A stretch of DNA of 64,000 nucleotides from Dehalococcoidia bacterium (GCA_965249275.1 CBDFLQ010000005.1:448001-512000), one strand, 5' to 3'. Positions 8,686-57,313 are shown, numbered from the stretch's first letter. Numbers and translations are program-made. Notes: generated by a model not told the origin, from the letters alone.

Positions 8686-9666
8686 ATGGCCAATAACAAG
8701 AATCCTTACGACGTAGTGATAATCGGGCAGGGGGCCTCGGCCTTTGGGGCGGCGTTGTACTCGGCTCGGTACCAGATGAAGACCCTAGTCATCGGCGACG
8801 AGTTCGGGGGCGAGACCGCCACGGGCAGCATCATCGAAAACTACCCAGGCTACTCGCACATTGACGGGTTCGACCTGATGCTTGCGATGAAGAAGCAGGT
8901 CGAGGATCTTGAAGTCGAGATAGTTACCGACGAGGTCAAGGAGATTCAAAACGACGGCAACTGCTTTATCTCTACAGCCCACGAAGGCCAATACCAGAGT
9001 ACGGCGGTCATCCTTGCCGTGGGCCGGGAGCGCCGCAAGCTGGGCCTTTCCAACGAGTCGGACATGCTGGGGAAGGGCGTCTCCTACTGCTCGACCTGCG
9101 ACGCACCCCTATACCGAGACCAGACCGTGGCGGTGGTCGGGGCTGGAGACGCGGCGATAAAGGGAACGGTGCTGCTGGACAAGTACGCCTCTCGGGTGTA
9201 CCTGATATACCGCAAGGACAAGCTCACCCGCCCCGAGCCCGTAAACCTGGCGATGCTGGAAAGAGCCGAGAACGTGGTCCAGCTGGCCGGCACCAACGTC
9301 ACGGGGCTGCTGGGTGACGAGAAACTGGAGCGGCTGGCCCTGGACCAGCCCTATGACGGCGTAGGGGAGTTAGATGTGGACGGCCTGTTCATCGAGATCG
9401 GTGCAGACCCGAGGAACGCGTTGGCCAGATCCCTCGGCGTGATGATCAACTCCCAGGGCGAGATCATGGTCTCCAAGATGATGGAGACAACGGTGACGGG
9501 CGTGTTCGCCGCGGGTGACGTGACCGATGCCACCGGGGAGCTGAAGCAGACCATCACCTCGACGGCCCAGGGGGTTATCGCAGCGACCTCGGCGTACAGG
9601 TACGTGTCGGAGCACGGTAACATGTGCCAAATGCACGCCGCCGGTTTCGAGCTTGCCGCGGTGTAG
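8686..9666 (+). CDS. trxB: Thioredoxin-disulfide reductase (divergent nucleotide-binding motifs)
   Basis: IENYPG, GVSYCSTCD redox CxxC, GVFAAGDVT. Confidence 0.85.
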   Translation: MANNKNPYDVVIIGQGASAFGAALYSARYQMKTLVIGDEFGGETATGSIIENYPGYSHIDGFDLMLAMKKQVEDLEVEIVTDEVKEIQNDGNCFISTAHEGQYQSTAVILAVGRERRKLGLSNESDMLGKGVSYCSTCDAPLYRDQTVAVVGAGDAAIKGTVLLDKYASRVYLIYRKDKLTRPEPVNLAMLERAENVVQLAGTNVTGLLGDEKLERLALDQPYDGVGELDVDGLFIEIGADPRNALARSLGVMINSQGEIMVSKMMETTVTGVFAAGDVTDATGELKQTITSTAQGVIAATSAYRYVSEHGNMCQMHAAGFELAAV

Positions 9667-10206: not shown

Positions 10207-11580
10207 ATGCCAGACCCCAACGAAAACGCCCCCCAGAGATGTGATCTGCTTATCCGCGGTGGCTATGTCATCACCATGGACGCCGACAACTCCAAGCATC
10301 CCGTCGGCGCCATCGCCATCCGTGGCCGCGAGATCGTAGCCGTGGGCCCCGAGGCCGAAGTCGTCTCCAAATACAGACCCTTGCGCACCCTCGATGTTAA
10401 GGGTGGGCCGGTACATCCCGGCTACATAGACCTTCACTACCACGTCTCGGGGCACCTGCCCAGCAAGCTGCTGGAGGACGGCGTCGCCTCCTCCGCGGGC
10501 GCCGGGCAGTGGATTGCCAGCCGCTATCAGCGCTTCTTCAACGCCCTGGGAGACGAGGAGGAGTACGCCAGCGCCATGCTCGCCGGCCTGGATATGCTGC
10601 GCAACGGGTTCACCTCTTTCGTGGAGCCCGGTACCGTCCACAGCACTGACGCCGTCGCCGAGGCCTGCAACGCCCTCGGCATCAGGGCCTGGGTTGGGGA
10701 CCCGTGGCTCTGGGACGTCGGCGGCGAAGGGCACATGGTCATAGACCGCGCCCCCTTCGACACCAAGAGGTCGCTGTCGCTACTCGGTGGTGAGCTAAAG
10801 CGCAACAGCGACCCCGACACCCTGGTTAGGGGCCACGTCGCCGTCTACGGCAGCGGCACCCAGACCGACGAGCTAATGGAGGCCGGCAAAGCCTGCGCTG
10901 ACGATAACGACGTCACCTTCAACTCCCATCAGTCCATGTCCGAGGGAGACTCCGAACGGAGTGGTCGGCACGCCTACCTCCACTGGGCCGAGAAGGGCAT
11001 CCTGGACTCCAAATGCCTGTTCGTTCACAGCAACGTCATCCGTGATCCCGAAATGCAACCCATCCTGGACTCCGGGCTAACCATCGCATGGGTCCCGGGC
11101 AACTCCTTCTACTATGGTGTACGCAAGAGTATCCCCAACCGCATCCCGGAGCTCTACCACCGGGGCCTCAACGTCGGGTTCGGGATGGACGTAAACAAAA
11201 CCTGGGTATTCGGGCAAAACACCCTGCTCGCCTACAACATCGCCCGTGAAGAGCGACAGGTCCTCTATCCAGACGACCTGCTGAAGATACAGACCATAAA
11301 CGGGGCCCGGGCCCTGAAGGCCGAAACCATGGTCGGCAGCATCGAGCCCGGCAAGAAGGCCGACATCGTCATCCGCTCCCTCTCCGATCCCTGGAACTTC
11401 CCCGTCCACCACATCGAGCGGGACATCACCCTCTACAGCCTCACCCGGAACGTTGACACCGTCTTGGTCGACGGCCGCATAGTGATAAAGAATGGCCGCC
11501 ACACCATGATCGACGAAGAGGTTGTCTACCAGCAGGCCCAGAACGCTGCGGAGACTCTGCTGGCAGCGGGATCTCCGTAG
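10207..11580 (+). CDS. Amidohydrolase (MTA/SAH-deaminase, AtzA-like)
   Basis: PGYIDLHYH, GFTSFVEPG, FVHSN, GSIEPGKKADIV. Confidence 0.82.
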   Translation: MPDPNENAPQRCDLLIRGGYVITMDADNSKHPVGAIAIRGREIVAVGPEAEVVSKYRPLRTLDVKGGPVHPGYIDLHYHVSGHLPSKLLEDGVASSAGAGQWIASRYQRFFNALGDEEEYASAMLAGLDMLRNGFTSFVEPGTVHSTDAVAEACNALGIRAWVGDPWLWDVGGEGHMVIDRAPFDTKRSLSLLGGELKRNSDPDTLVRGHVAVYGSGTQTDELMEAGKACADDNDVTFNSHQSMSEGDSERSGRHAYLHWAEKGILDSKCLFVHSNVIRDPEMQPILDSGLTIAWVPGNSFYYGVRKSIPNRIPELYHRGLNVGFGMDVNKTWVFGQNTLLAYNIAREERQVLYPDDLLKIQTINGARALKAETMVGSIEPGKKADIVIRSLSDPWNFPVHHIERDITLYSLTRNVDTVLVDGRIVIKNGRHTMIDEEVVYQQAQNAAETLLAAGSP

Positions 11581-11625
11581 GGGACGACTCGGGCTGACTT
11601 CCATTCGAATTCCTGCGGGGAAGAG

Positions 11626-11679
11626 CCGCTCGTGCTGTCGAAGACCTGCCGCGGCGGCGGCATGTCGAAGCATGAGCGG
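11626..11679. repeat. Palindromic REP (CCGCTC...GAGCGG family) with an internal module of about 21 nt
   Basis: Terminal inverted repeat; same 54-bp length and layout as 27473-27526. Confidence 0.75.
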
Positions 11680-11842
11680 GGTGTGGGACGAGTGTCTTCT
11701 TCCCCACTACCCTGAGGGCGCGTCGTGATATGATAGGTCAGTTCTGAATGTAGCAGTAACGACGCCTGCCGCTCACTGACCGACTATTGAACTTCTTTCA
11801 AAGTGCAGTTAAGGTGTCCACACCTTTCAGGAGGAGGGTATT

Positions 11843-12202
11843 ATGACAACTAAAGTCATTACGCGGCCATACCTTACATTAGGTCATCACGAGTCATTGG
11901 ATATATGTGTTGCTCGGTTCGAAGAACTTGGGCTTACCGCTTACGGCAAAACAGGGGACGAGGCGTACGAGAACCTTAGATCCCTTTACAGCCGCTTCAT
12001 TAAGCTTGCTCTAGTCAACGACACACTCAAAGCACAGCTTGACCACTCCGGAGTGGAGTGGTCAATACAGGAACTTGACGAATCCGTTGCCCCAGAGAAA
12101 GAGCAAGCGCTATCAGAGTACCTTCGTCAATTACTGGAAGGCTTAGGGGAAGGTGACGTGGCATCAGAGCCCACCCGTGAAAAGGTTGAGATGGTGTCCT
12201 AA
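11843..12202 (+). CDS. HicB-like protein
   Basis: CVARFEELGLTAYGKTGDEAYENL resembles the HicB N-terminal motif; strong RBS GGAGGAGG. Confidence 0.55.
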   Translation: MTTKVITRPYLTLGHHESLDICVARFEELGLTAYGKTGDEAYENLRSLYSRFIKLALVNDTLKAQLDHSGVEWSIQELDESVAPEKEQALSEYLRQLLEGLGEGDVASEPTREKVEMVS

Positions 12203-14464: not shown

Positions 14465-16846
14465 CTACCCTCTTAACGCCGCCCCGGTCTCCCGACCCAG
14501 CTTCTCCAATAGCTGCGCCTGCACCATGTTCACTTCATGCTCCCCCAACGTCCTGCTCGGCGACTGGTACAGCACCCGGAACGCCAGCGATTTCTTATCC
14601 TCCGCTACCTGGTCCCCCGTGTACACGTCGAACAGCTCTACCGAGGTTACCAGCGGGAACGACTCGATCACATCCTGCACCGCCGTCGAAGGTGTATCCG
14701 CGTCGACGATCAGGGCCAGGTCTCTAAGCGCACCGGGGTACCGGGACACGGGCCTGTATCTCTTGGTTGCAGGGAGATGTGCCAGGAGCCGGGCCATGTC
14801 CACCTCGAACACGTGCACCGACGCCCCCTCTATGTCGAACGCCTCTACCACCTGTGGATGCACCTCCCCCAACACCGCCAACCGCTCCCCTCGCGCCGAT
14901 ATCTGCACGACGCGTCCCGGATGCAGTCCTTCACCTTCGTCCCTTTCGAACTGCGCCTCCACCCCCAGCCGGCCGAGCATCATCTCCAGCACTCCCTTTG
15001 CTCGGAGGAACCCGTCCATCGGGTCGTCCGGGTCGCCGGTCACGACTCCCGTCAGCACTTCCTGCTCTTCCGGCAGGTCCCTATTCCTTGGGATGTACAC
15101 CTTGCCCGCCTCGAACATGAGCAGGGGCCCGTGGTGGTACTTCTTGTTGTGCTCCACGTTGGCCAGTAGCCCCGGCCTCAGGCTGAGACGCAGGTACTCC
15201 TGCTCGACACGGAGCGGGTTTGCCACCCTCAACGGCTTCATCTGCGCCAGGTGAGTGAGGCCCGCGTTCTCCAGCCCCTTCACGTCCGACAGCGAGTAGT
15301 TCACCACCTCTTGCATACCGGAACCGGCCAGCAAGTCCTTCACCCGATCCCTTAAGCTCCGGGCATCGTCGGGTTCGTTTGGCGGGATCCGGCCCGACAG
15401 CGGCGTGGTGGGAATGTCGTCGTAGCCACGGATTCGGGCCACCTCTTCCACCAGGTCGTCCTCGATGCCTATGTCGGTGCGCCAATAAGGCGCGTCGACC
15501 TTCAACGTCCCCTCTCCCGCGTCCTCGCACCCGAATCCCAGAGATTCCAGAACCCCGCGCACCGTCTCTAGCCCAATCGGGATGCCGAGGACCTGCTTAA
15601 TCCGCGCCTCGGTGATGTGAAGTGAGGCACTCTCCTTCTCCCCGGGGTAGACATCGATGATCCCCTCGGCGACCGTGCCTCCGGCCAACTCGGCCAGCAA
15701 TTGCGTTGCCCGGCGCAGGCCCCTTGGAGGCAGTTCGGGGCTCAGGCCCTTGTCGAACCGCAGCGACGCTTCGCTCCGCAGTCTCAGCCGCGTCGACGTT
15801 CGCCTGATATTTACGTTGTCGAAGTTGGCCGACTCCAAGAGCAACGCCGTCGTGCCTTCCGTGACCTCGCTGTCTCCCCCACCCATCACCCCCGCCAAGC
15901 CGATGGGGCCATCCGGGTCAGAAATGACCTGCATTTCCGGGTCCAGGGTACGTAGCTCACCATCCAGGGTCAGGAGCCGCTCCCCGGCCCTCGCCCGCCT
16001 CACAATTATCTTGTGGTCTTTGATCTTGTCGTAGTCGAAGGCGTGAAGGGGTTGGCCGTACTCCATCATCACGTAGTTCGTGATGTCGACCACGTTGTTG
16101 ATTGGCCTCATGCCACATGCCTTCAGCCGTTCCTGCATCCACACCGACGAAGGCCCGACCTTCAGTCCCGTAACAATACTGGCCGTGTAACGGGAGCACA
16201 GGTCCGGGTCTGCTATCTCCACCGACGCCAGGTCAACCGCCGCCCTTGCTTCCTCCTCATAGGTCACATTCGGCGGCGTAATCTGCTCGCCGGTAAGGGC
16301 CGCCACTTCCTGCGCAACCCCGAGCATCGACAGGCAGTCAGGCCGGTTCGGGGTGAGTTCAAGTTCCAGGATGCTGTCACCGAGATAGTCGAAGAGCGGC
16401 ATCCCAGGCGGTGCGTTCTCCGGCAAGACGAGGATGCCCTCGTGCTCCTCGGACATCCCAAGCTCTTTCTCGGAGCAGATCATGCCGTTGGAGACTACGC
16501 CCCGGATCTTCGCCGCCTTCAGCTTGACCGACTTCCCCGAATGGCCGTCGAACAACTGCGCCCCGACCTTGGCAAATGCGATGTTCTGGCCCGCGGCCAC
16601 GTTGGGGGCGCCGCAGACCACCTCATGGGTCTCGCCGGGCAGGTCGACGGTGCACAGGCTAAGCCGGTCGGCGTTCGGGTGCTTATTAACCTCGCACACC
16701 TTCCCGACACACACCCCTTCCCACGCCTCCCCCACCTCCTCCACACTCCCAACCTCCAGACCTGCCATCGTCAGCTTATGGGCCAATTCCTTCGGCTCTA
16801 GGGACACGGGCACATAGTCCCTGAGCCATTTGAGAGATACTTTCAT
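14465..16846 (-). CDS. pheT: Phenylalanine-tRNA ligase beta subunit
   Basis: MKVSLKWL, HPNADRL, TPNRPDCLS, NNVVDITNY, DLVEEVARIRGY, SLAFRV. Confidence 0.98.
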   Translation of the reverse strand: MKVSLKWLRDYVPVSLEPKELAHKLTMAGLEVGSVEEVGEAWEGVCVGKVCEVNKHPNADRLSLCTVDLPGETHEVVCGAPNVAAGQNIAFAKVGAQLFDGHSGKSVKLKAAKIRGVVSNGMICSEKELGMSEEHEGILVLPENAPPGMPLFDYLGDSILELELTPNRPDCLSMLGVAQEVAALTGEQITPPNVTYEEEARAAVDLASVEIADPDLCSRYTASIVTGLKVGPSSVWMQERLKACGMRPINNVVDITNYVMMEYGQPLHAFDYDKIKDHKIIVRRARAGERLLTLDGELRTLDPEMQVISDPDGPIGLAGVMGGGDSEVTEGTTALLLESANFDNVNIRRTSTRLRLRSEASLRFDKGLSPELPPRGLRRATQLLAELAGGTVAEGIIDVYPGEKESASLHITEARIKQVLGIPIGLETVRGVLESLGFGCEDAGEGTLKVDAPYWRTDIGIEDDLVEEVARIRGYDDIPTTPLSGRIPPNEPDDARSLRDRVKDLLAGSGMQEVVNYSLSDVKGLENAGLTHLAQMKPLRVANPLRVEQEYLRLSLRPGLLANVEHNKKYHHGPLLMFEAGKVYIPRNRDLPEEQEVLTGVVTGDPDDPMDGFLRAKGVLEMMLGRLGVEAQFERDEGEGLHPGRVVQISARGERLAVLGEVHPQVVEAFDIEGASVHVFEVDMARLLAHLPATKRYRPVSRYPGALRDLALIVDADTPSTAVQDVIESFPLVTSVELFDVYTGDQVAEDKKSLAFRVLYQSPSRTLGEHEVNMVQAQLLEKLGRETGAALRG

Positions 16847-19872: not shown

Positions 19873-20364
19873 TTAGTCATCCCAGGAAGCACCTAACTGC
19901 CGGATCATATCGTAGGTATTGATACATTTAACGGAATACTGATCACACACGTTGGGGATCTTTACCTGCTGAGAGCTTGGCCGGACACGCGACTCTAAGG
20001 TAACTACTACACCTCGCTCAGCAATCGCGTGAGCTATGACCCACGGATCGGCCCGACGCAAAAACCTGCGCCTAGCCTGGTTGTCGGGATAGCTCCGCAC
20101 CACATAACTTACCACCCCCCTGACCTCCTTTTGAACAGCTATGCTGGGGTCAACGAACATCCCTGAATTCTTACGCTCCTTGGCCCAATTCACTATCTCA
20201 TCCTGCCCATCCAACAACTCTTGGTAAACTTGAATGGGACATGCGACTTGGCCACCTTCAACAAGTTCATCGATCATTGTCCAGAACCGAGGTGCAATGT
20301 CGAAATCATATGGTCCCTTCTTTCCCTCAATGAAGACATTGCTGTCCAACCAAAAGTTAGTCAA
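19873..20364 (-). CDS. DUF4411-family PIN-domain protein
   Basis: LDSNVFIE, YDFDIAPRFW, ADPWVIAHA, VVTLE, KIPNVC. Confidence 0.88.
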   Translation of the reverse strand: MTNFWLDSNVFIEGKKGPYDFDIAPRFWTMIDELVEGGQVACPIQVYQELLDGQDEIVNWAKERKNSGMFVDPSIAVQKEVRGVVSYVVRSYPDNQARRRFLRRADPWVIAHAIAERGVVVTLESRVRPSSQQVKIPNVCDQYSVKCINTYDMIRQLGASWDD

Positions 20365-21550
20365 GACTTAGAGGATCCCCGAATATATGCTCCGCAATGC
20401 TTGGGAGGGTCTTAACTTTCACTCCCAATAAGTCAGCTGCCTCACTGCTGAGCAGGGATCCTTCCGCCGCTCTGGAAATGACGGCACCGGTAAACTCTGC
20501 CCCATTACGAGCAGTCACAGTGTTGCGGAAATCCCCACCTGATGAACCCGTCTGTTGCGCCTTTCCTGCTTGTTCTACGAGTCGGCTATAGGCGCCTCTG
20601 TACTCGTCAATCCGCAAGAAGGCCTCGTCATGAGCTTTGCGCAAGATCACCATTGGGCTCACCTTATAGTGGCCGCTCAGGTTGCTCAGGTTGTCTTCCC
20701 AAGCTGGACGGCCAAAGACCCAACGGGATCGAAAGTCCTCTCTGGGAACCAACGTTTCAGCAGCAACGCGGTTACAGAACTGCTCTAAAGTGCTGTCTTC
20801 CCTTTCTCGGCTTAGACCGTAGTCTGGGTTAGATATCCCACCTTGTCCCAACCAGATATGGGCTAACTCATGTGCGAGAGTGAAGATTTGTGCCCCTTTG
20901 AAATCCCCGCCATTTATGAAAATTAGCGGAGCAATGTGATCGCTTATTGAGAAGCCGCGGAATTCATCGACATCCAGTAGACGGTGATTATTGTTGCCGA
21001 CTACACCGCTGCGCATCACCATGATCCCAGACTTCTCTGCGTTGCGACTCAGTTCCCGCATAAACCCTTCACGGTCGGACGCCCGCCGTCTCGCAGCATC
21101 AACATCAATCACCTCGCGAATATCGCTGGCCACTACATCCTCTGGATCAGTTGTACCGAAGCGGCCCACGAAGGAGAGCTCCTCTACTCCCTGCGACTCC
21201 CGATATTGTCGATACCATTCTTGTTTGCCCAGCACATCGTTAAGTAAGTCCAAGAAGTCGGCGCTGGGTTCTTTGGAGTTTTGACCAGGGATGATACGGA
21301 AGTCGGGAAGCGGCAGTTCTTCAATCGGAGGCTCGGGCAGGTACAGATAACCGAAGGGAACGTACACAGCTTGGGCGAATAGCTGGGCCTGCCTAAAGGT
21401 GGGTCGTTTCGCCCCATCCTCCCAAGCGTCGATTGCCTCCGGCTTGACGTTTAACCTACTAGCAAGTTCTCCGACTTCAAGTCCACGCCGTAGCCGTGCC
21501 CAAGTCAGCACATCTGGAGTGACCAGCGCCTCGGTCATCCTTCTCTCCAT
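20357..21550 (-). CDS. XRE HTH fused to an ImmA/IrrE-family Zn metallopeptidase
   Basis: N-terminal HTH (WARLRRGL...AWEDGAKRPTFRQ), LPDFR, FTLAHELAH (HExxH), EQFCNRVAAE; overlaps the DUF4411 gene by 8 bp. Confidence 0.9.
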   Translation of the reverse strand: MERRMTEALVTPDVLTWARLRRGLEVGELASRLNVKPEAIDAWEDGAKRPTFRQAQLFAQAVYVPFGYLYLPEPPIEELPLPDFRIIPGQNSKEPSADFLDLLNDVLGKQEWYRQYRESQGVEELSFVGRFGTTDPEDVVASDIREVIDVDAARRRASDREGFMRELSRNAEKSGIMVMRSGVVGNNNHRLLDVDEFRGFSISDHIAPLIFINGGDFKGAQIFTLAHELAHIWLGQGGISNPDYGLSREREDSTLEQFCNRVAAETLVPREDFRSRWVFGRPAWEDNLSNLSGHYKVSPMVILRKAHDEAFLRIDEYRGAYSRLVEQAGKAQQTGSSGGDFRNTVTARNGAEFTGAVISRAAEGSLLSSEAADLLGVKVKTLPSIAEHIFGDPLSLD

Positions 21551-26150: not shown

Positions 26151-27194
26151 CTAAAACTGTCTCAGGAACCGTATGTCGTTCGAATAGAAAAGCCTGATAT
26201 CGTCTATGCCGTACTTGAGCATGGCTATCCGCTCCGGCCCCAGACCGAACGCGAAACCCGTGTACACGCTCGGGTCGTAGCCCACGCGCTCAAGCACCTT
26301 GGGGTGCACCATGCCTGCACCCATTATCTCTATCCACCCGGTCCCGCTGCACACCCGGCACCCTCGCCCCTCGCAGAGGAAGCAGTCGATGGACATGTCG
26401 ACTCCCGGCTCGACGAAGGGGAAGTAGTCGCAGCGGAACCTGACCTTACGCTCGGCGCCGAAGAGCATTCTGGCGAACTGGAACAGGGTGCCCTTCAAGT
26501 CGGCGAAGGTTATGCCCTTGTCGACCGCTAGGCCCTCGACTTGGAAGAAGATGCTTTCGTGGGTGGCGTCGGTGGCCTCGTAGCGGTAGACGCGGCCGGG
26601 GACTATGACCCGGATGGGGGGTTCCCGACTCTCCATCACCCGTATCTGCATCGGCGAGGTGTGAGTACGGAGCAGCATGGGCCGCTGGCCGTCGTCAGTC
26701 TCGTAGTCTATCCAGAGGGTGTCCCACATGTCGCGGGCAGGGTGGCCCTGGGGAATGTTTAGCGCCTCGAAGTTGTAGTAGTCCCACTCAACCTCCGGCC
26801 CCTCTACCACCTGGAACCCCATGCTGTTGAAGGCCTCGCATATCTCCCGGAGCATCTGGGTAGTCGGGTGCAGGCGGCCCAGCTCGACGGGATGTCCAGG
26901 CAGCGTGACGTCGATGGCCTCCCCGAGCCTCTTGGAAAGCTCATCCTGCTTGAGCGCCTCTTCCTTGTCAGAAAGGGAACCCTCCAGCCGGTTCTTCGCC
27001 CTGTTCGCCGCCGACCCCGCCTCTCGCCTCTCCTCCACCGGCAGCGAGCTTACTCCCCGCAGCAGCTGGGTCAGCGACCCCTTCCGCCCGAGATACGAGA
27101 CGCGCCACTTTTCCAGCGCCTCGGGCTCGGCCAACGGCTCAAGCTCCGAAAGGGCTCTTGAAGTAAGCTCTTCAACCTGCTGCATCATGGTCAT
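26151..27194 (-). CDS. pheS: Phenylalanine-tRNA ligase alpha subunit
   Basis: [56 protein letters not shown]. Confidence 0.98.
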
Positions 27195-27338: not shown

Positions 27339-27383
27339 ATTCCGCTCGCCCTGAGCTGAGTCGAAGGGTCTCAAGAGCGGAAT
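27339..27383 (-). repeat. 45-bp REP, basic unit (ATTCCGCTC...GAGCGGAAT)
   Basis: Reverse complement of the copies at 46661 and 57269. Confidence 0.85.
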
Positions 27384-27472
27384 GGGGCGGGGGGGATTAT
27401 CCCCGCCATTCCCGGGCGATCCAGATTGGGCCTAGTGTGCGCCTGTGGCATGAATCCGGAGGCGGGGTGGGG

Positions 27473-40831: not shown

Positions 40832-40943
40832 ATTCCGCCCTAGAGACCCCCTTCGAGAGCCTCAGGACAGGCTTCGACTAGGCTTACGCCACGGTCGTAC
40901 GCCAAAGGCGCACTTGCAGCATCTTCGACAGGGCGAGCGGAAT
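40832..40943 (+). repeat. Expanded REP (45-bp unit plus three modules of about 22 nt)
   Basis: Same termini as the 45-bp unit; 112 bp. Confidence 0.75.
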
Positions 40944-41431: not shown

Positions 41432-41596
41432 CTATTCCTATCCTTATGTTTACGGTCTCGCTTTTGTCTGCGGGCATCTATTTTAACTGACTTTCCAACT
41501 GGCACCTAAACTCACAAACGAAGTGCAACACGTAGTTAAAGAGCCGGCTGGGCGTTACGTTAGGGGAGGTGTGAGTGGCAGGGGCGGCCCCACCCC

Positions 41597-41664
41597 ATTC
41601 CGCTCTTGAGACCCCCTTCGAGAGCCTCAGGACAGGCTTCGACTCGGCTCAGGGCGAGTGGAAT
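41597..41664 (+). repeat. Expanded REP (45 + 23 nt)
   Basis: Insert containing CTTCGAGAGCCTCAGGACAGG. Confidence 0.78.
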
Positions 41665-45400: not shown

Positions 45401-46561
45401 ATGAAGACGGCAACTTGGCAGTACTTCACCCTGGAGGAATACCAGGGCAGGTTGGACGCTCTAAGGGCGCGGATGGAGGCGAAGGGTGTGGACTGCATGA
45501 TGGTACACACGCCGGAGAACCTGTATTACCTAACCGGGTACCAGACCCCCGGCTACTATTGGTACCAGACGTTGATAGTAACCATGGACCGGGAGCCGGT
45601 GTTCATAACCCGCCTACTGGAGAACTCCAACGTAGAGCACCTGACTTGGGTGGAGGACAGCCGGCCCTACGGGGACTCGGACGACTGGGTGGCTCGGACG
45701 CGGGACACACTGGAGGACCTGGGGATGGGGTCGAAGAGGATAGGGGTGGAGATGAGCTCCTGGTTCATAACCATCCAGGACTACGACAGGTTGAAGGGGA
45801 TGCTGCCGGACGCGAAGTGGGTGGACTGCTCGATGATGGTGGAAGAGGGGCGGATGATCAAGTCGCCGAAGGAGATCGAATACATTACGCAGGCTGCCCG
45901 GGCCACGGAGGCAAGTGTACTGGCGGGGATCGAGGCGTCGGCGGTGGGGGCTACGGAGAACGAGGTCGCCGCGGCGGTGTATGCGGCGCAGATAAAGGCG
46001 GGAAGCGAATACACGGGGCTGCCCCTCTTCGTCACCGCCGGTAAGAGGTCGTTCCTCGGACACGTGACATGGTACCGGGAGACGATACAGCCGGGGGACA
46101 CGGTGTTCCTGGAGCTATCGGGTTGCATCAACCGGTACCACGCCTCGCAGATGCGGAACGTGTACCTGGGTGATCCGCCGGAGGGATCCATAAAGGCGAC
46201 GGGCGTGATGGCTGAGGCCCTGGAGGAGATGATCAAGTTCATAAAACCTGGGGTCACGGCGCACGATGCCCACATGGTGTGCAAGAACGTCATTGGGGGG
46301 GCGGGGCTGGGGGTGGAGCTGACTCACCGGGCAGCGTATTCCATAGGAATAGCGTTTGCGCCGGACTGGGGCGAAGGGCACATTATCAGCATGAACGAGG
46401 GTGAATACCGGGAGTTGAAGGCCGGGATGACCTTCCACCTGATACCGGCTATTTTTATACCGGGGCTGTCGTCGGTGGGGGTGAGCGAGACGGTGTTGGT
46501 GACGGAGACCGGTTGTGAGCCGATAACTGGGAATGTGGAGAGGAAGCTGTTTTCGAAGTAG
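45401..46561 (+). CDS. M24-family hydrolase, ectoine hydrolase DoeA/EutD-like, paralog 1
   Basis: NLYYLTGY, RMIKSPKEI, GCINRYH, YSIGIAFAPDWGE, GMTFH. Confidence 0.82.
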   Translation: MKTATWQYFTLEEYQGRLDALRARMEAKGVDCMMVHTPENLYYLTGYQTPGYYWYQTLIVTMDREPVFITRLLENSNVEHLTWVEDSRPYGDSDDWVARTRDTLEDLGMGSKRIGVEMSSWFITIQDYDRLKGMLPDAKWVDCSMMVEEGRMIKSPKEIEYITQAARATEASVLAGIEASAVGATENEVAAAVYAAQIKAGSEYTGLPLFVTAGKRSFLGHVTWYRETIQPGDTVFLELSGCINRYHASQMRNVYLGDPPEGSIKATGVMAEALEEMIKFIKPGVTAHDAHMVCKNVIGGAGLGVELTHRAAYSIGIAFAPDWGEGHIISMNEGEYRELKAGMTFHLIPAIFIPGLSSVGVSETVLVTETGCEPITGNVERKLFSK

Positions 46562-46616
46562 AGGGATAGACCTTCCAGTCACAAGAACGGGGATCACCCT
46601 GGCCCTCTCCCATCGA

Positions 46617-46740
46617 GAGACCTTTGCGTAACTCCGGGCGGGGGCCGGGACACCCCACCGATTCCGCTCTTGAGACCCTTCGACTCAGCTCAGGGCAAGC
46701 GGAATACCCCGCCATCTTAGGCGGGGTTAGGCAATGGATC
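46617..46740 (+). mobile_element. Degenerate MITE (end GAGACCTTTGCGTAAC) carrying a 45-bp REP (46661-46705)
   Basis: Left end recurs at about 55998 and 57227, each directly after CCATCGAG; decayed right end GTTAGGCAATGGATC. Confidence 0.55.
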
Positions 46741-46769
46741 AACAAAGAGAGAGGGCAACGGAGGAATAG

Positions 46770-47930
46770 GTGAAGAAACCGAACTGGCAGTATTTTGAGC
46801 TGGAGGAGTACCAGCAGAGGCTCGATGCACTTCGGGGGCGGATGGAGGGGTTGGGGGTGGATGCGGTGCTGGTGAACACGCCGGAGAACCTTTACTACCT
46901 CTCGGGTTATCAGACGCCGGGGTATTACTGGTGGCAGACGCTGGTGGTGCCGATGGACCGGGAGCCAGTGTCGGTCACGCGTAGGGTGGAGGACTCGAAC
47001 ATGCGGGAGCTGGGGTGGGTCGAGGACCGGCGCCCGTATGAGGACTATGAGGACTGGGTGGAGAAGACGCGGGATGTGCTGGTGGACCTGGGGCTTGGGG
47101 GGAAGACGATCGGGATGGAGCTTGGGAGTTTCTTTCTTCCGGCAAGGGACTACCTGAAACTGCAGAGCCTGATGCCGGGGGCCAAGTTCGTGGACAGCAC
47201 GGGACTAATCGAAGAGGGGCGGATGATCAAGTCTCCACAGGAGATCGAATACATGCGGCAGGCGGCTAAAGCTGCAGAGGCAGCTACGCTGGCCGGTATA
47301 GAGGCGGTGGGGTTGGGGGCAACGGAGAATGACGTGGCGGCGGAGATGCACAGGGCACAGATCAAGGCAGGAAGCGAGTATACGGGCTTGCCGATTTTCG
47401 TGGCCTCGGGGGTGCGGTCTACGATGACGCACGCCACCTGGTACCGCAGGCCCCTGCAGGAAAACGAAGTCGTGTTCTTCGAGGTGCCGGGGTGCGTAAA
47501 CCGTTATCACGTCGCCATGATGAGGGAAGTGTATATAGGGGAGCCGTCGGAGTTGATGGTGAGGGGTATGGATGTCGTGACCAACACCCTCAGGAAGGCC
47601 AAGGAGAAAATCAGGCCGGGGGTCGTGGCGGGGGACCTTTTCGAAGAGATCAAGGAGATGCTGGACTCGGCGGACCTGGGGGCGAAGCTGGAGCGTCGGG
47701 CGGCGTACTCGATAGGCATAGCCTTCGCTCCCGACTGGGGTGAAGGGCACATCATCAGCATCACGAGAGGCGAGGAGCGATCCCTGCAGGCAGGCATGGC
47801 CTTCCACCTGATTCCCGGGGTACGGATCCCGGGGTTCGGGGGCATCCTATGCAGCGACACGGTCCTGGTCACGGAGGACGGTTGTGAGACGCTGACGGGT
47901 GGGGTGGAACAGAAGTTGTTTGTGAAGTGA
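46770..47930 (+). CDS. M24 DoeA/EutD-like hydrolase, paralog 2
   Basis: Same motifs as paralog 1. Confidence 0.82.
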   Translation: MKKPNWQYFELEEYQQRLDALRGRMEGLGVDAVLVNTPENLYYLSGYQTPGYYWWQTLVVPMDREPVSVTRRVEDSNMRELGWVEDRRPYEDYEDWVEKTRDVLVDLGLGGKTIGMELGSFFLPARDYLKLQSLMPGAKFVDSTGLIEEGRMIKSPQEIEYMRQAAKAAEAATLAGIEAVGLGATENDVAAEMHRAQIKAGSEYTGLPIFVASGVRSTMTHATWYRRPLQENEVVFFEVPGCVNRYHVAMMREVYIGEPSELMVRGMDVVTNTLRKAKEKIRPGVVAGDLFEEIKEMLDSADLGAKLERRAAYSIGIAFAPDWGEGHIISITRGEERSLQAGMAFHLIPGVRIPGFGGILCSDTVLVTEDGCETLTGGVEQKLFVK

Positions 47931-48110
47931 CTATTGGCGATGCGCGGCTTAGACTTGGGAACACCCTCATTCTCCTCAGAGAACCTACGGCCCTAGCCCT
48001 CTTCCGTCGAGGGAGAGGGGAGAGAACACCTCCCCCGCCCCAGATTCCTCGCGGAGCCTCGGAATGACGGTAATGCAAGGACCTCTTTTGGAGACAGCTA
48101 AGGAGTGGAC

Positions 48111-49286
48111 ATGAGAAGCCCCAAGTACCAGTTCTTCACGCTTGAAGAATATCAAGGACGGCTGGATGCGCTGCGACGGCGGATGGAAGAACGGGGGATT
48201 GATGTTCTGCTGGTCAACTCGCCGGAGAACTTGTATTACGTTTCCGGTTACCAGACTCCCGGCTACTACTGGTACCAGACGCTGATAGTGACGATGGACC
48301 GAGAGCCGGTGTTCATCACCCGACTCAATGAGGAGTCCAACATTGCGCCTCAATCCTGGGTCGAGGATAGTCGGCCCTACGAAGACCACGAGGACTGGAT
48401 AGCGCACACCCGGGACGTGCTGATGGACTTGGGTAAGGCAGATGCGCGCATCGGGGTACAGTATGACTCGTTCTTCCTGACATCCAGGGACGAGAAGGGG
48501 CTTGCGGCTGCCTTATCGTCGGCGAGGTTTGTCGATGGGTCGGGGCTGGTGGAGGAGGGGAGGATGGTGAAGTCGGCACAGGAGATCGAGTACATAAGGC
48601 AGGCGGCGAAGACGGCGGAGGCGGGGTTGAGGGCGGGGATCGAGGCTTGCCAGGTGGGGGTGACGGAGAATGACGTGGCGGCGGAGATTCATCGGGCGCA
48701 GATCAAGGCGGGGAGCGAGTACACGGGACTTCCGATATTCATAAGGACGGGGGAGCGGGACTCGATGACCCATTCGACGTGGTATCGGAACGTGATACAA
48801 CCCGGAGACAGCGTGACGATAGAGATGCCGGGGTGCATCAACCGCTATCACGCAGCGACATACAGACAGATATTCCTCGGTGACCCGCCTGAACTGCTGC
48901 TCAGGGCAAGGGAAGTGGGAAGCGAGGTTATGGCGAAGGCGAAGTCGGCGATCAGGCCGGGGGTCCCGGCGGGGGATATACACCGGCTGGTGCAGGAGAG
49001 CCTCGAAGAGGCGATGGGCTCGGGGAGTAAGCGAAACAGCCGGGCGGCTTATTCTATCGGAATAGCTTTTGCGCCGGACTGGGGCGAGGGGCATATTATT
49101 AGCATGACCGAAGGGGAGACCCGGCCACTTCAGGCGGGAATGACCTTTCACCTGCTGGCGGGACACGTGGCCCTGCAGGGTCTCGACAGGGTGAAGAGGG
49201 CGGTGAACAGTGACACGATTCTCGTCACGGAGGATGGGTGCGAGACGCTGACGGACGGGTTGGAGCATAAGCTGTACGTGAAATAG
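48111..49286 (+). CDS. M24 DoeA/EutD-like hydrolase, paralog 3
   Basis: Same motifs; AGGAG before ATG 48111. Confidence 0.82.
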   Translation: MRSPKYQFFTLEEYQGRLDALRRRMEERGIDVLLVNSPENLYYVSGYQTPGYYWYQTLIVTMDREPVFITRLNEESNIAPQSWVEDSRPYEDHEDWIAHTRDVLMDLGKADARIGVQYDSFFLTSRDEKGLAAALSSARFVDGSGLVEEGRMVKSAQEIEYIRQAAKTAEAGLRAGIEACQVGVTENDVAAEIHRAQIKAGSEYTGLPIFIRTGERDSMTHSTWYRNVIQPGDSVTIEMPGCINRYHAATYRQIFLGDPPELLLRAREVGSEVMAKAKSAIRPGVPAGDIHRLVQESLEEAMGSGSKRNSRAAYSIGIAFAPDWGEGHIISMTEGETRPLQAGMTFHLLAGHVALQGLDRVKRAVNSDTILVTEDGCETLTDGLEHKLYVK

Positions 49287-52823: not shown

Positions 52824-53987
52824 CTAGCCCACGGCGGGGGCGGGCACGGACAGGCCGTACATGGCTAGGGCGTTTTCGCCCAGTATCTTGTTCTGGTCGG
52901 CTTCCGAAAGGGAGGCGATGTTCTGCTTGACTTTGTTGAGGGGGTCAGTGTGGCCCTCGGGGTGGGGCCAGTCGGAGCCCCACATGAAGCGATCAGTCCC
53001 AACCATTTGGGCAACGGCCCCGAGACCCTTCTCGATGGGTTCGGCGCTGACCCAGACCTGACGGCGGAAGTAGTCGCTGGGGGTCATGGTCAGAGGCATG
53101 TCGAAGCTGAATCGGTCGATCTTGAAGTCCATCATGTCGAGCCAGTGGAGGAGCCAGGTGCAGCCAACTTCGACCATGGATAGTTTCAGGCCGGGGAACT
53201 TTTCGAAGGTGCCGTCACCCATCATGCAGGTAAAGCTGATGAGGGGATCTGCGAAGGTCATTACGTTGTTGAAGAACACGGGGCCGAGACCAGTTTCGTC
53301 TTCGGGATATGAATTGCGGCCCGGGTAGTCTGGGTTGAGGACTACGTGGAAGGTTATGGGCATGTCCAGGTCCTGGGCGGTGGCCCAGAAACGGTCATAA
53401 TACTCGTGGCTGTACCGGATCCCGTTCATGGGGGCGGGGCAGATGAAGGCGCCTTTCATGCCGTCCTTTGCAGCCCTCTCCAGCTCTTTGATGCCCTCGT
53501 TCACGTCTCGTACCGTGACGTGGGCTATGGGGATCAGCCGGTCGGGATACGGCGCACAGAAATCGACGAGCCACCGATTATAGGCCGTGCAGTAGGCGGC
53601 GGAGAGCCTGGGGTCTTCGCACTCTGCTTCCCAGCCCAGGCCTAGGGTCGGGAATAGGAAGGTCTTGTCTACTCCGTGCTTGTCCAGGTGGGCGATTCTT
53701 GCGTGAGGGTCCACTGATCCTGGGGCGATGTTCTTGAGCTCATCGTAGGGGAGAGTGGGATGCTCCATCATCCACTCTCGGGTCTGGTCGACACCCCCGA
53801 TCCTGCCCAGGGTGCCACCGTTGTACCCGATGCTGACCTTCCCATCGATGTCCAGATATTCCAAGCCGAATTCATCCACACTGATTTTCAGGGCCCGGCT
53901 ACGGAACTCGGGGTCCATGTATTCCTGCCACAAGGTGGCCGGTTCCATGATGTGGCTGTCGGCGTCGACGACTATTCCTGATGCCAT
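52824..53987 (-). CDS. Amidohydrolase_2 family protein, paralog B2
   Basis: VDADSH, AYNRWL, WGSDWPHPEG. Confidence 0.88.
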   Translation of the reverse strand: MASGIVVDADSHIMEPATLWQEYMDPEFRSRALKISVDEFGLEYLDIDGKVSIGYNGGTLGRIGGVDQTREWMMEHPTLPYDELKNIAPGSVDPHARIAHLDKHGVDKTFLFPTLGLGWEAECEDPRLSAAYCTAYNRWLVDFCAPYPDRLIPIAHVTVRDVNEGIKELERAAKDGMKGAFICPAPMNGIRYSHEYYDRFWATAQDLDMPITFHVVLNPDYPGRNSYPEDETGLGPVFFNNVMTFADPLISFTCMMGDGTFEKFPGLKLSMVEVGCTWLLHWLDMMDFKIDRFSFDMPLTMTPSDYFRRQVWVSAEPIEKGLGAVAQMVGTDRFMWGSDWPHPEGHTDPLNKVKQNIASLSEADQNKILGENALAMYGLSVPAPAVG

Positions 53988-54004: not shown

Positions 54005-54130
54005 CTAGGCTGAGGCGTTGGGCACGATGCGGATGGTGCGGGGCTTGAACTCGGGTTCGAGGTAGTCCAGCCACATGGAAGCGTGTTCAGTAACGTGTCT
54101 TTCGGCATCGACTATAACGCCGGTCGACAT
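54005..54130 (-). pseudogene. Truncated third amidohydrolase paralog B1 (41 aa)
   Basis: MSTGVIVDAERHVTEHASMWLDYLEPEFKPRTIRIV aligns with MASGIVVDADSHIMEPATLWQEYMDPEFRSRALKIS. Confidence 0.8.
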
Positions 54131-54176
54131 GCTGGTGTGTTCCCCCCAGAGCAAATACAGCAACGAACGAATTCCG

Positions 54177-54479: not shown

Positions 54480-54536
54480 CCGCTCGACCCTTCGACTCTG
54501 CTCCCGCCTTAGGCGGATCTTCGACAGGGTGAGCGG
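54480..54536 (+). repeat. REP with a 22-nt inserted module
   Basis: Insert CCGCCTTAGGCGGATCTTCGAC at GCTC^AG. Confidence 0.75.
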
Positions 54537-54599
54537 CCTCACCTCCTCGGGGAGGGGATGGTGTAGAATTTAGGTATATCAGGGATAGTCGGAGGGAGA

Positions 54600-55067
54600 A
54601 TGCTGAAGGCAGGGACTCGGGCCCCGGATTTTGAGGCGGTGCAGCATGACGGCGAGAGGTTTTGCTTTGCCGATTGGCGAGGCGACAGCCCCGTAGTCAT
54701 CTATTTCTACCTGAAGAACTTTACTGTCGGCTGAAACCGTCAAGCTCGTGGCTTCCGTGACGCATATGAGGCTATAAGTGGGTACGGGGCCCAGGTTGTC
54801 GGGGTTAGCACCGACAGCCCGGAAAGCCACGACCGGTTCCGGAGCTGGTTGTCGATCCCTTTCACCTTGCTGTCCGACTCCGACAAGAAGGTAGCTCGAC
54901 TCTACGACGTTGCCCGTAGGATGGGGCTTGGGGTGTCTCGGGTGACCTACGTTATCGATAAGTCGGGGGTCATCAGGGATGTATTCCATCACGAGGTGAG
55001 AATCGGCAAGCATGTGGAGGACGTGCTGGAAGGGGTGAAGGCGCTGGACAGGGAGAGGGGAGGGTGA
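54600..55067 (+). CDS. bcp: BCP/PrxQ peroxiredoxin, putative selenoprotein (UGA at codon 45, 54732-54734)
   Basis: MLKAGTRAPDF...VVIYFYLKNFTVG-U-NRQARGFRD...GVSTD...LLSD...RVTYVIDKSG; frame continuous across the TGA; GGAGGGAG RBS. Confidence 0.85.
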
Positions 55068-55275
55068 CCTCAAGGGATCGGCCTTACTGGAGAGAGGGGA
55101 GGGAATGGATTAACGCTCTGCCAAAGGCGGACTTTCAGCTCGGCGCACGCTATAGGCGCACTTGCAGCATCTGCGGCCTGCACTCCATAGGCGCATCTGC
55201 GACCTACGCAGGAATTACGAGTGGAAAAGGGGGCTGGTGTAGAATTGAGTTATATCAGCCATATGCGGAGGGAGA

Positions 55276-55755
55276 ATGCTAAAGGTAGGGACCAGGGCCC
55301 CGGATTTCGAGGCGGTGCGGCATGACGGCGGGACGTTCAGACTGAGCGAGCACTTTGGCCGTCAACCCGTGGTGCTGTATTTTCACACAGGGGCCTTCAG
55401 CGTCCTCTGAAATATCCAGTCCAAGGGCTTCCGTGATGCGGATGAAGCCTTCCAGGGATACAACGCCCTAGTCGCCGGGATCAGTCCCAATACCCCCGAG
55501 GTGAATGCACAGTTCCGGAGAGAGTTTGGGATGCAGGCTGTTCTGCTGTCCGACCCGGAGAGAAAGATCAGGAAAGCCTATGATTCGCTGCGGGTGTTCG
55601 GGGGGTTCAGGACGGCTTACCTGATTGATAAGTCGGGGGTGGTGCGGGGGGCACATGAATACGTGGTTGTGGGGATAGGTCGGCACGTGAAGAAGCTGCT
55701 CAAGGGGTTGGAGAAGCTGCGGGAGGAGGAGTTGGTGGGGGGATTAACTTCGTAG
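55276..55755 (+). CDS. Second BCP-like peroxiredoxin, putative selenoprotein (UGA at codon 45, 55408-55410)
   Basis: MLKVGTRAPDF...VVLYFHTGAFSVL-U-NIQSKGFRD...LLSD...RTAYLIDKSG; frame continuous across the TGA. Confidence 0.8.
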
Positions 55756-55997
55756 GCATTCGACTGACGGGTGTTGTGGGAGTTGGGTTACTGTCACTTT
55801 CCTCAGCGAGCCCCAATTGGGTAGCTTATTCATACCTAGTCAATCGTGAATTCTTGTCCCTGGGTTTACGCCACAGCGCACCTTCGGCCCGTTTTCACGG
55901 GAAAGACGGTTATGCGGGGGTCTTGCCTCGGCGCACGCGAAGGGCGTATTTGCAGAATCTGCGATCCTCCAAGGGCGGGCCTTTGGCCCATCGAGGG

Positions 55998-56177
55998 GCC
56001 CTTGCGTAACTCCGGGTTGGGGCCGAGAAGCCCCGCCCATTCCGCTCTGGAGACCCTTCGACTTGGCTCACGCCATGGCGCATCTTCGACAGGGCGAGCG
56101 GAATACTCAGTCCCAGGAATGGAAATGCCATACTTCGTTAGCAGGTTCAGGGGCGGGAATGAAGGTTATGCAAAGGT
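55998..56177 (+). mobile_element. MITE-like composite carrying a 66-bp expanded REP (56039-56104)
   Basis: Ends GCCCTTGCGTAAC ... GTTATGCAAAGGT; CCATCGAGGG occurs on both sides. Confidence 0.6.
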
Positions 56178-56286: not shown

Positions 56287-57078
56287 TCAGGTAACGGCTT
56301 CTTCCATGCGGCGTATGAAGTCTCGGATGGCGCGGAAGTAGGCGTCGGTGTCGACGAACATGATGTCGTTGTGACCGGCGCCGGGGATGGTGAAGAAGGT
56401 CTTGTCGGTGGAGGCTACGGCTTCGTAGAGGTCCTGGGGGTGGGAGATGGGGACGAGGAAGTCACGGTCGCCGTGGATGATGAGCAGTGGGGTGTCGATG
56501 CTCTGGACCCGGGCCCAGTGGTCCTGGAGAAGCTGGGAGATGACGGGGGTCTCGGCGATACCGAGCCTTTGAGGCATTCCACCGACGTTGGCCGAGCCAC
56601 TTTCGATGATCATGCCCTTAATCTTTTCTCGGGCGCCCGCGGCTATCTCGACAGCGCAGTAGGCGCCGAGGGACCGGCCCATCACGTAGATTGAGGGAGC
56701 GTAACCGTTTTCGCTCAGAAACGTCTCCAAGGCAGCAAGGGCAGTATGACTGTCTTCAACCAAGGCGGATACCGAGGGTTCTCCCTGGGATTTGCCGTAG
56801 CCTCGGTAGTCGGTGACGAAGAGGTTTAGGCCGATGTGGTTGTAAAGGGAGGAAATGGCGTCGTATTCGGGGGCGACTTCACCGTTGCCGTGGAAGAAGA
56901 GGATAGTGGGGCGTTGTTTATCTTCGGGGAAGAAACGGCCGCATAGCTGGACCCCGTCATGGGAAGGGAAGGTGTGGTCCAGGGCGCCGGTTGGAGGGGG
57001 TGAGGAGTCGGGGCGGGGGTAGAACATGTAGTGGGTGATTTGGGGGAGGTCGAGGAGGGTGTAGTCGAGCTTGTTCAA
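56287..57078 (-). CDS. Alpha/beta hydrolase (ABHD/BEM46-like)
   Basis: FFHGNGE, DYRGYG, GRSLG, IHGDRD, GAGHND. Confidence 0.9.
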   Translation of the reverse strand: MNKLDYTLLDLPQITHYMFYPRPDSSPPPTGALDHTFPSHDGVQLCGRFFPEDKQRPTILFFHGNGEVAPEYDAISSLYNHIGLNLFVTDYRGYGKSQGEPSVSALVEDSHTALAALETFLSENGYAPSIYVMGRSLGAYCAVEIAAGAREKIKGMIIESGSANVGGMPQRLGIAETPVISQLLQDHWARVQSIDTPLLIIHGDRDFLVPISHPQDLYEAVASTDKTFFTIPGAGHNDIMFVDTDAYFRAIRDFIRRMEEAVT

Positions 57079-57268
57079 GGGTCGGGCTCCTTTGAAGGGT
57101 CTGGGAGCATGTTAGGTTATTGTGGCGGGGAGGGGAAGTGAAGGATTTTGGGCTCTCGGGAGGGTATTGCCTACCTGCTCTGTTGAAATTCGATTCACCC
57201 TCACCCTAGCCCTCTCCCATCGAGGAACCTTTGCGTAACTCTTCGCGAGGGGTCGGGACACCCCACCC

Positions 57269-57313
57269 ATTCCGCTCTTGAGACCCTTCGACCCGGCTCA
57301 GGGCGAGCGGAAT
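57269..57313 (+). repeat. 45-bp REP, basic unit
   Basis: ATTCCGCTCTTGAGACCCTTCGACCCGGCTCAGGGCGAGCGGAAT. Confidence 0.85.

Follow-up and report, generated by a model that had tools for sequence, protein, structure and literature searches.

Do two adjacent genes of a Dehalococcoidia genome, each cut by an in-frame TGA at the same codon, encode a pair of selenocysteine (Sec) enzymes? They lie in tandem in a 64,000-nucleotide stretch of DNA from a Dehalococcoidia bacterium (GCA_965249275.1, CBDFLQ010000005.1:448001-512000), hereafter called the window, in which positions are counted from the first letter. The original prediction, made from the DNA alone, described two BCP-like peroxiredoxin (Prx) genes interrupted at codon 45 with the frame open on both sides, placed the TGA at the peroxidatic Cys position and proposed that both genes encode Sec. 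Our analyses confirm the first two of these points and support the third. We put the probability at about 85% that the two genes, named here g1 and g2, are intact, separately promoted paralogues of the BCP/PrxQ branch whose UGA45 is read as Sec, in a member of the Dehalococcoidia (Chloroflexota). This reading is supported by the invariance of the TGA among relatives, its pairing with Cys in other phyla, purifying selection, a downstream hairpin with frozen synonymous sites and the use of TGA as a stop elsewhere.

The g1 gene (54600..55067, + strand) has 155 codons, from an ATG at 54600 to a terminal TGA at 55065-55067. The g2 gene (55276..55755, + strand) has 159 codons between an ATG at 55276 and a TAG at 55753-55755. 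Each frame is interrupted only once, by the TGA of codon 45 (54732-54734 in g1 and 55408-55410 in g2, both on the + strand), and is open on either side of it, so that the read-through products comprise 155 and 159 residues. These products are 47-49% identical to each other. The AhpC/TSA family of Pfam (PF00578, cut-off 26 bits) matches both of them across the TGA, at residues 5-127 of g1 (E 1.1e-33, 116.2 bits) and residues 4-124 of g2 (E 1.7e-24, 86.6 bits). Coordinates and Pfam matches thus agree with the gene structure first proposed.

We compared the read-through products with 5.8 billion proteins. Of the 120 matches listed for g1, 13 reach 67-92% identity, and each of these is a fragment of 86-107 residues that covers the C-terminal 46-58% of the query; full-length matches are at most 52% identical. 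The 94 matches listed for g2 include two fragments at 93-94% identity, the rest being at most 39% identical. Close relatives appear only as fragments because gene callers end at the TGA. A scan of a species-representative genome collection, a search of the type suggested in the original prediction for Cys- or UGA-aligned homologues, returned 13 loci. Five of them (L001-L005) are complete chromosomes of Dehalococcoidia metagenome-assembled genomes, 3.0-3.4 Mb in size, each with the same tandem pair. A sixth (L007) carries a more distant Dehalococcoidia gene, 43% identical, with TGA at the aligned codon 44, and the other seven hold Cys homologues from Gammaproteobacteria, Bacillota and Xanthobacteraceae. 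The flanks of the window are syntenic with L001-L003, and its downstream flank with L004 as well, which places the window in a genome closely related to these Dehalococcoidia.

The pair set thus comprises 12 genes, six g1 and six g2, from the window and L001-L005; with the gene of L007 it amounts to 13 genes from seven assemblies. TGA occupies the aligned codon in 13/13 of these genes, including g1 in 6/6 orthologues. It is never replaced by TAA or TAG, and no gene has a second interruption or a frameshift. In all seven homologues from other phyla, this codon is TGC or TGT. We also aligned 20 full-length database homologues, chosen from the g1 and g2 match lists, and all 20 have Cys in the TGA column, which corresponds to the Cys of the PxxxTxxC motif as had been proposed. 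The peroxidatic column is therefore invariant in 33/33 aligned rows (13 TGA read-through products and 20 Cys proteins). Conservation of TGA at the catalytic codon is far beyond chance, in line with the initial argument against random nonsense mutations.

Elsewhere in the window, TGA works as a normal stop codon. It terminates nine of the 42 complete Pfam-supported open reading frames (ORFs), g1 itself included, the others ending in TAG (22) or TAA (11). UGA45 is thus not the product of a change in the genetic code, an explanation that we ruled out on these grounds, and Sec is the best reading of it. A Pfam scan of the 26 TGA read-through frames that lie outside Pfam-supported genes, of 145 such frames in the window, gave no matches that would point to other selenoprotein genes. 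A tblastn screen of 1195 read-through frames across the loci was dominated by conserved out-of-frame ORFs of syntenic genes; among the matches listed, only the peroxiredoxin genes had a stop in all Dehalococcoidia and Cys in other phyla.

How the halves downstream of the UGA evolve had been set out from the start as decisive. Ratios of nonsynonymous to synonymous substitution rates (dN/dS) were computed by the Nei-Gojobori method for 15 orthologue pairs per gene. They range from 0.04 to 0.25 for codons 1-44 and from 0.07 to 0.22 for codons 46-150 of g1, and from 0.05 to 0.17 and 0.05 to 0.26, respectively, for g2. The exceptions concern the N-terminal part of g2, namely the comparison of the window with L002, with almost no synonymous change (dS 0.03, ratio 1.23), and one saturated pair. 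The downstream halves of both genes, at 0.05-0.26, are under purifying selection rather than neutral, and they are translated and constrained.

A hairpin in the coding sequence accompanies the UGA in all 12 genes of the pair set. A 6-bp stem, GGCUUC/GAAGCC, starts 15 nt after the UGA, with 12 nt between its arms. We read it as a candidate bacterial Sec insertion sequence (SECIS), located at 54750..54773 (+ strand) in g1, and at 55424..55451 (+ strand) in g2, with its core at 55426-55449. In g1 of the window, the 3' arm reads GAGGCU and retains the two altered pairs as G-U wobbles. The minimum-energy fold of the g2 element (-12.2 kcal/mol) has an upper stem of 5 bp capped by a GAU loop. Across the alignment, 93.6% of the stem cells pair, vs 19-56% when the partner is slid by one to three columns.

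The synonymous sites of the stem are frozen. Where two genes have the same residue, they also use the same codon in 242 of 264 comparisons within the four stem codons, vs 1986 of 3536 elsewhere in codons 1-100. The best eight of 92 eight-codon windows ranked by synonymous identity all fall inside codons 45-59. Of 26 fully conserved degenerate columns, only codons 51-53 (GGC UUC CGU) use a single codon in all 12 genes, and the loop codons 54-55 vary freely. Sharing of the stem codons by proteins that are only 47% identical argues that the RNA itself is constrained.

Published bacterial SECIS elements are described as having a loop of 3-9 nt with G in its first two positions, a spacing of 16-37 nt and a minimum free energy of at most -7.5 kcal/mol (PMC13188914, Fig. 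2). Minimum-energy folds of the 12 genes range from -8.4 to -12.2 kcal/mol with 21-25 nt between UGA and loop, and so fit the spacing and energy ranges in 12/12 cases. The loop rule fits the minimum-energy fold of four of the 12, namely g2 of the window, L001, L002 and L003. The L007 gene has another small hairpin, GCGG-AGUU-CCGC, 16 nt after the UGA, which fits the loop rule and reaches only -6.7 kcal/mol. We dropped hairpin energy as a line of evidence, with z scores of about 0 against shuffled sequences and Cys homologues that fold equally well.

The history of the pair was approached with a maximum-likelihood tree of 41 proteins. The g1 and g2 proteins form one clade (support 97/91), within which each paralogue mirrors the genome order, which makes the duplication older than the six genomes. 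Since the TGA and the hairpin are common to both copies, the duplication is most simply placed after the Cys-to-Sec change. The sequence of events would be a Cys-to-Sec switch, then duplication, then divergence of the six genomes. After the duplication, g2 would have evolved fast, losing the motif Pro in all lineages and the Thr/Ser described below in half of them, while remaining under purifying selection. The L007 gene clusters with two Cys proteins of the database, P0024 and P0014 (support 100/97), and at least two switches between Sec and Cys are therefore needed to account for the tree.

AlphaFold models built with the 33-row alignment have mean confidence scores (pLDDT) of 92.6 for g1 and 93.3 for g2. 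In both of them a helix begins at residue 43, with residue 45 within its first turn. The best Foldseek match of the g2 model is Bcp1 of S. solfataricus (3DRN; TM scores 0.90/0.94, root-mean-square deviation 1.6 A), which is also the best solved sequence relative of g1 (E 1.2e-32, residues 1-152). The active-site Arg (R114 in g1, R112 in g2) is invariant in 33/33 sequences. Around residue 45, g1 reads YFYLKNFTVGU-NRQAR and g2 YFHTGAFSVLU-NIQSK, and the strings YLKNFTVGU and HTGAFSVLU given in the original prediction were thus correctly read.

As also noted there, neither protein has a resolving Cys at position +5 relative to residue 45. This position holds Arg in g1 and Lys in g2 of the window, with Arg/Gln (g1) and Lys/Glu (g2) across orthologues. 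Of the 20 aligned Cys homologues, 16 carry a Cys at +5 and four (P0014, P0024, P0122 and P0128) do not; none of the 13 TGA genes has one. The g2 protein has no Cys at all in 6/6 orthologues. In g1 of the window C22 is the only one, and Cys residues occur sporadically among the orthologues at positions 22, 81 and 83 without any being conserved. Position +3 carries neither Cys nor Sec (U-N-R-Q in g1, U-N-I-Q in g2), so that there is no UxxC or UxxU motif.

Several observations weigh against a pair of Sec-containing peroxidases, and they concern the motif, the hairpin and the decoding machinery. Position -7, which is Pro in 20/20 aligned Cys homologues, is Leu in g1 and Thr in g2 of the window. 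The Pro is replaced in 11 of the 12 pair genes; it survives in g1 of L005, and in L007. The claim that both genes had lost it thus stands for the window and fails as a general rule. Position -3 is Thr in g1 (6/6). In g2 it is Ser in three of six genes, including that of the window, and Gly in the other three, which read Y-G-L-L-U (L003 10840-11304, L004 10567-11034 and L005 10567-11031) and are still under purifying selection. The Gly forms had escaped the original prediction. With Gly in three orthologues where Prx chemistry needs Thr or Ser, peroxidase activity of g2 is uncertain. Both proteins also score below the cut-off of 140 bits of the NCBIfam equivalog model for E. coli-type BCP (NF006960), with 94.5 bits for g1 and 52.1 for g2. 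Regarding the hairpin, none of its six pairs shows compensatory changes and column shuffles return the observed values, which means that its support is conservation and not covariation. Its stem also codes for conserved residues (G-F-R and E-A), and in Cys homologues of GC-rich genomes the corresponding stretch reaches folding energies of -5.9 to -14.9 kcal/mol. Lastly, we found no tRNA and no Rfam match in the 64 kb of the window, no SelA, SelB or SelD domain among its 47 scanned ORFs, and no tRNA of any kind, hence no tRNA-Sec, in six loci. Similarly, no sel genes or obvious redox partner were detected with Pfam among the 42 ORFs that flank L004 and L007.

Among the alternatives, the one that survives best accepts that Sec is inserted but gives at least one of the proteins, g2 in particular, a role other than peroxidase, as a Sec-dependent thiol/selenol oxidoreductase or redox sensor with a Prx fold. 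The case for it lies mostly in g2, which sits on a long stem of the tree (0.98 changes per site), has no close Cys counterpart (39% identity at best among the matches listed), lacks the motif Pro in 6/6 genes and has Gly for Thr/Ser in 3/6. PMC7231847 assigns the proton relay of Prx catalysis to Thr and reports that Sec lowers the barrier in silico, and the Gly-42 orthologues of g2 are of interest for that reason. The score of only 52 bits on the BCP equivalog model goes in the same direction. Nevertheless, the Arg and the Sec position are conserved in all sequences, g2 of the window still has Ser at -3, its fold is that of Bcp1 with a TM score of 0.90, and neither protein has the UxxC/UxxU motif seen in the Prx-like thiol:disulfide oxidoreductase selenoproteins. 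On balance we consider a non-peroxidase function unlikely, while giving it appreciable weight for g2.

A second alternative does without selenium: UGA would specify an ordinary amino acid (Trp, Cys, Arg or Gly), inserted through a local recoding signal or by near-cognate or suppressor decoding, and the product would be for instance a low-yield Cys-peroxiredoxin. It would be compatible with the lack of Sec machinery in the window and the scanned loci and with a hairpin that fits the published loop rule in only four of the 12 genes. However, TGA/Cys pairing at the redox site of a known Sec family is the classic signature of selenoproteins according to PMC1088965, and TGA is a working stop in nine of the 42 genes. 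Moreover, if Cys were the useful residue, selection should favour TGC or TGT, each a single mutation from TGA, and neither occurs at this codon in any of the 13 genes. The class also includes genomes that are very rich in selenoproteins: two Dehalococcoidia genomes, with 49 and 46 selenoprotein genes, are among the ten richest bacteria in BSepDB (PMC13326102, Table 2), and selenoproteins of Chloroflexi were already counted in a 2006 survey (PMC1794560). Decoding as an ordinary residue is accordingly very improbable.

Finally, that g1 and g2 are pseudogenes or decaying copies with nonsense mutations is barely credible: the standard code does cut each frame at codon 45 and public gene calls for the relatives are truncated pieces, but all 13 genes, from seven assemblies, carry TGA and carry it at the catalytic codon, no other stops or frameshifts occur, the start codon, Shine-Dalgarno sequence and -10-like element are retained, and dN/dS values far below 1 on both sides (0.04-0.26) remove this reading.

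If the two genes are Sec-peroxiredoxin genes, as we favour, UGA45 would be decoded as Sec by SelB and tRNA-Sec, recruited by the coding-sequence hairpin 15 nt downstream. Sec45 would lie in the first turn of helix alpha-2, beside the conserved Arg (R114/R112) and Thr42 in g1 or Ser42 in g2. Its selenolate would attack the hydroperoxide and yield a selenenic acid. There is no conserved Cys in either protein and thus no internal resolving residue, which suggests recycling by an external thiol. The selenenic acid would be reduced directly by thioredoxin, a glutaredoxin-like protein or a small thiol, in what amounts to a '1-Sec' version of the 1-Cys mechanism. The sole thioredoxin-reductase-like gene of the window (8686..9666) is 45 kb away and provides no evidence for the nature of the reductant.

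A more speculative proposal, which we regard as doubtful, is that in the g2 lineage Sec has made the classical activation machinery of peroxiredoxins dispensable, given that the Pro, every Cys and, in half of the genomes, the catalytic Thr/Ser (G-L-L-U) are lost under what is still strong purifying selection. Either Sec alone might reduce peroxide without the Thr relay, or g2 might be a new Sec-dependent redox partner of g1, for instance one that resolves its selenenic acid through an intermolecular Se-Se bond.

The upstream regions of the two genes resemble each other, as had been noticed at the outset. A 108-nt direct repeat (54554-54661 and 55230-55337, 86% identical) includes an extended -10-like element, a Shine-Dalgarno-like sequence, the ATG and the first 62 coding bases. 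The -10-like element, TGTAGAAT, is read directly on the + strand at 54562..54569 before g1 and at 55238..55245, within the repeat, before g2. The Shine-Dalgarno-like GGAGGGAGA (+ strand) is at 54591..54599, adjoining the ATG of g1 at 54600, and at 55267..55275 for g2, where it was also read directly. A TAnAAT motif is found at equal distance in nine of the 12 upstream regions of the pair in the six genomes. A scan for consensus sigma-70 promoters and terminators returned no sites, and the promoter role of TGTAGAAT is thus putative.

The 5' ends of g1 and g2 are 86% identical in the window, while the rest has diverged to 47% protein identity, and the upstream parts are much less alike in L001 than in the window. 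This suggests recent gene conversion of the 5' ends in the window genome.

The spacer between g1 and g2 measures 208 bp in the window vs 57 bp in L001 and L002. Short dispersed intergenic repeats were observed at 27352-27392, 40896-40943, 41594-41621, 46609-46692, 54486-54536, 55139-55175, 55927-56101 and 57216-57300. They are 81-100% identical over 25-86 nt and look like repetitive extragenic palindromic (REP) or miniature inverted-repeat transposable (MITE) elements. They flank the peroxiredoxin pair on both sides, with one copy inside the g1-g2 spacer.

The neighbours of the pair are an amidohydrolase gene (52824..53987, - strand) and an alpha/beta-hydrolase gene (56287..57078, - strand). 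Just upstream of the former, a 52-codon ORF (54005-54163, - strand) repeats its 5' end, with 66 nt that are 74% identical between 53904-53969 and 54047-54112. It is probably the leftover fragment of a duplicated Amidohydro_2 gene. More generally, the window is rich in paralogues of amidohydrolases, amidases and monooxygenases. The pheT (14465-16846, - strand) and pheS (26151-27194, - strand) genes are about 9 kb apart, and the interval holds five large Amidohydro_2 paralogues and a DUF4411/IrrE-M78 peptidase pair (19873-21550). At 45401-49286 (+ strand), a tandem array of three creatinase/prolidase-type M24 peptidase paralogues precedes a luciferase-like monooxygenase. At 10521-11918 of the L007 locus, a gene with a nucleotide cyclase domain and a gene with a Pycsar effector (PycTM) domain lie directly downstream of the putative Sec-peroxiredoxin gene and resemble a Pycsar anti-phage pair.

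With respect to known systems, Bcp-type peroxiredoxins (COG1225, PF00578) with a TxxU motif are a catalogued family of bacterial selenoproteins (PMC1088965, PMC9312934, PMC13188914). With 43 genes they ranked second in abundance among the known selenoprotein families of the Sargasso Sea survey (PMC1088965), and 12 genes with five inferred Cys-to-Sec conversions were reported in genomes in 2006 (PMC1794560). The g1 and g2 proteins have in common with this family the Pfam domain, the Bcp type, the pairing of UGA with Cys and a stem-loop directly after the UGA, and g1 also has TxxU. They differ from it in that the Pro of the 'highly conserved PxxxTxxU' motif (PMC13188914) is replaced in 11 of the 12 pair genes, in the SxxU or GxxU of g2, and in being tandem paralogues without a conserved Cys in six genomes.

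Bcp1 of S. solfataricus, the closest solved structure, is an archaeal Cys enzyme that has kept the motif Pro and Thr; in its deposited chain (3DRN), residue 45 and position +5 both align with Ser. The database proteins P0014 and P0024 are Cys relatives of BCP type, 47-52% identical to g1, with the pattern ...FTLGC-T-x-Q-x-[KR]-GF. Like g1 and g2 of the window they have Lys or Arg at +5 and no resolving Cys there, but their peroxidatic residue is Cys and their motif Pro is intact. The PrxU type also includes a Sec form of peroxiredoxin and belongs to another Prx subfamily; its model (NF040737, 233 positions, cut-off 270 bits) gives 55.2 bits with g1 and 34.5 bits with g2. We take this model to be linked to the Sec-peroxiredoxin of E. 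acidaminophilum of Sohling et al. 2001.

Apart from the Pro, all sequence criteria make g1 a predicted member of the known Bcp-type Sec-Prx family, of which g2 appears to be a divergent offshoot. To speak of an atypical, Sec-only Prx subfamily, as in the original prediction, was an overstatement, since g1 has the standard TxxU motif; too much was also made of the missing +5 Cys, which P0014 and P0024 lack as well. We found no account in the literature of a conserved tandem Sec-Prx pair or of SxxU or GxxU forms of Bcp, which supplements or BSepDB may nevertheless list. Modestly new, therefore, are the conserved tandem duplication, the absence of any conserved Cys, the loss of the motif Pro and the Ser or Gly that g2 has in place of the catalytic Thr.

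Bcp-type Sec-peroxiredoxins have long been known, and the pair opens no new class of system. Its interest lies elsewhere. Genes of the g1/g2 type are mis-annotated, their close database relatives all being truncated pieces among the matches listed, and the antioxidant repertoire of this group of Dehalococcoidia is thus undercounted. In addition, the matched paralogues and their Cys relatives are well suited to two questions, namely what a peroxiredoxin gains from Sec and how much erosion the PxxxTxxC scaffold tolerates after Sec has been installed.

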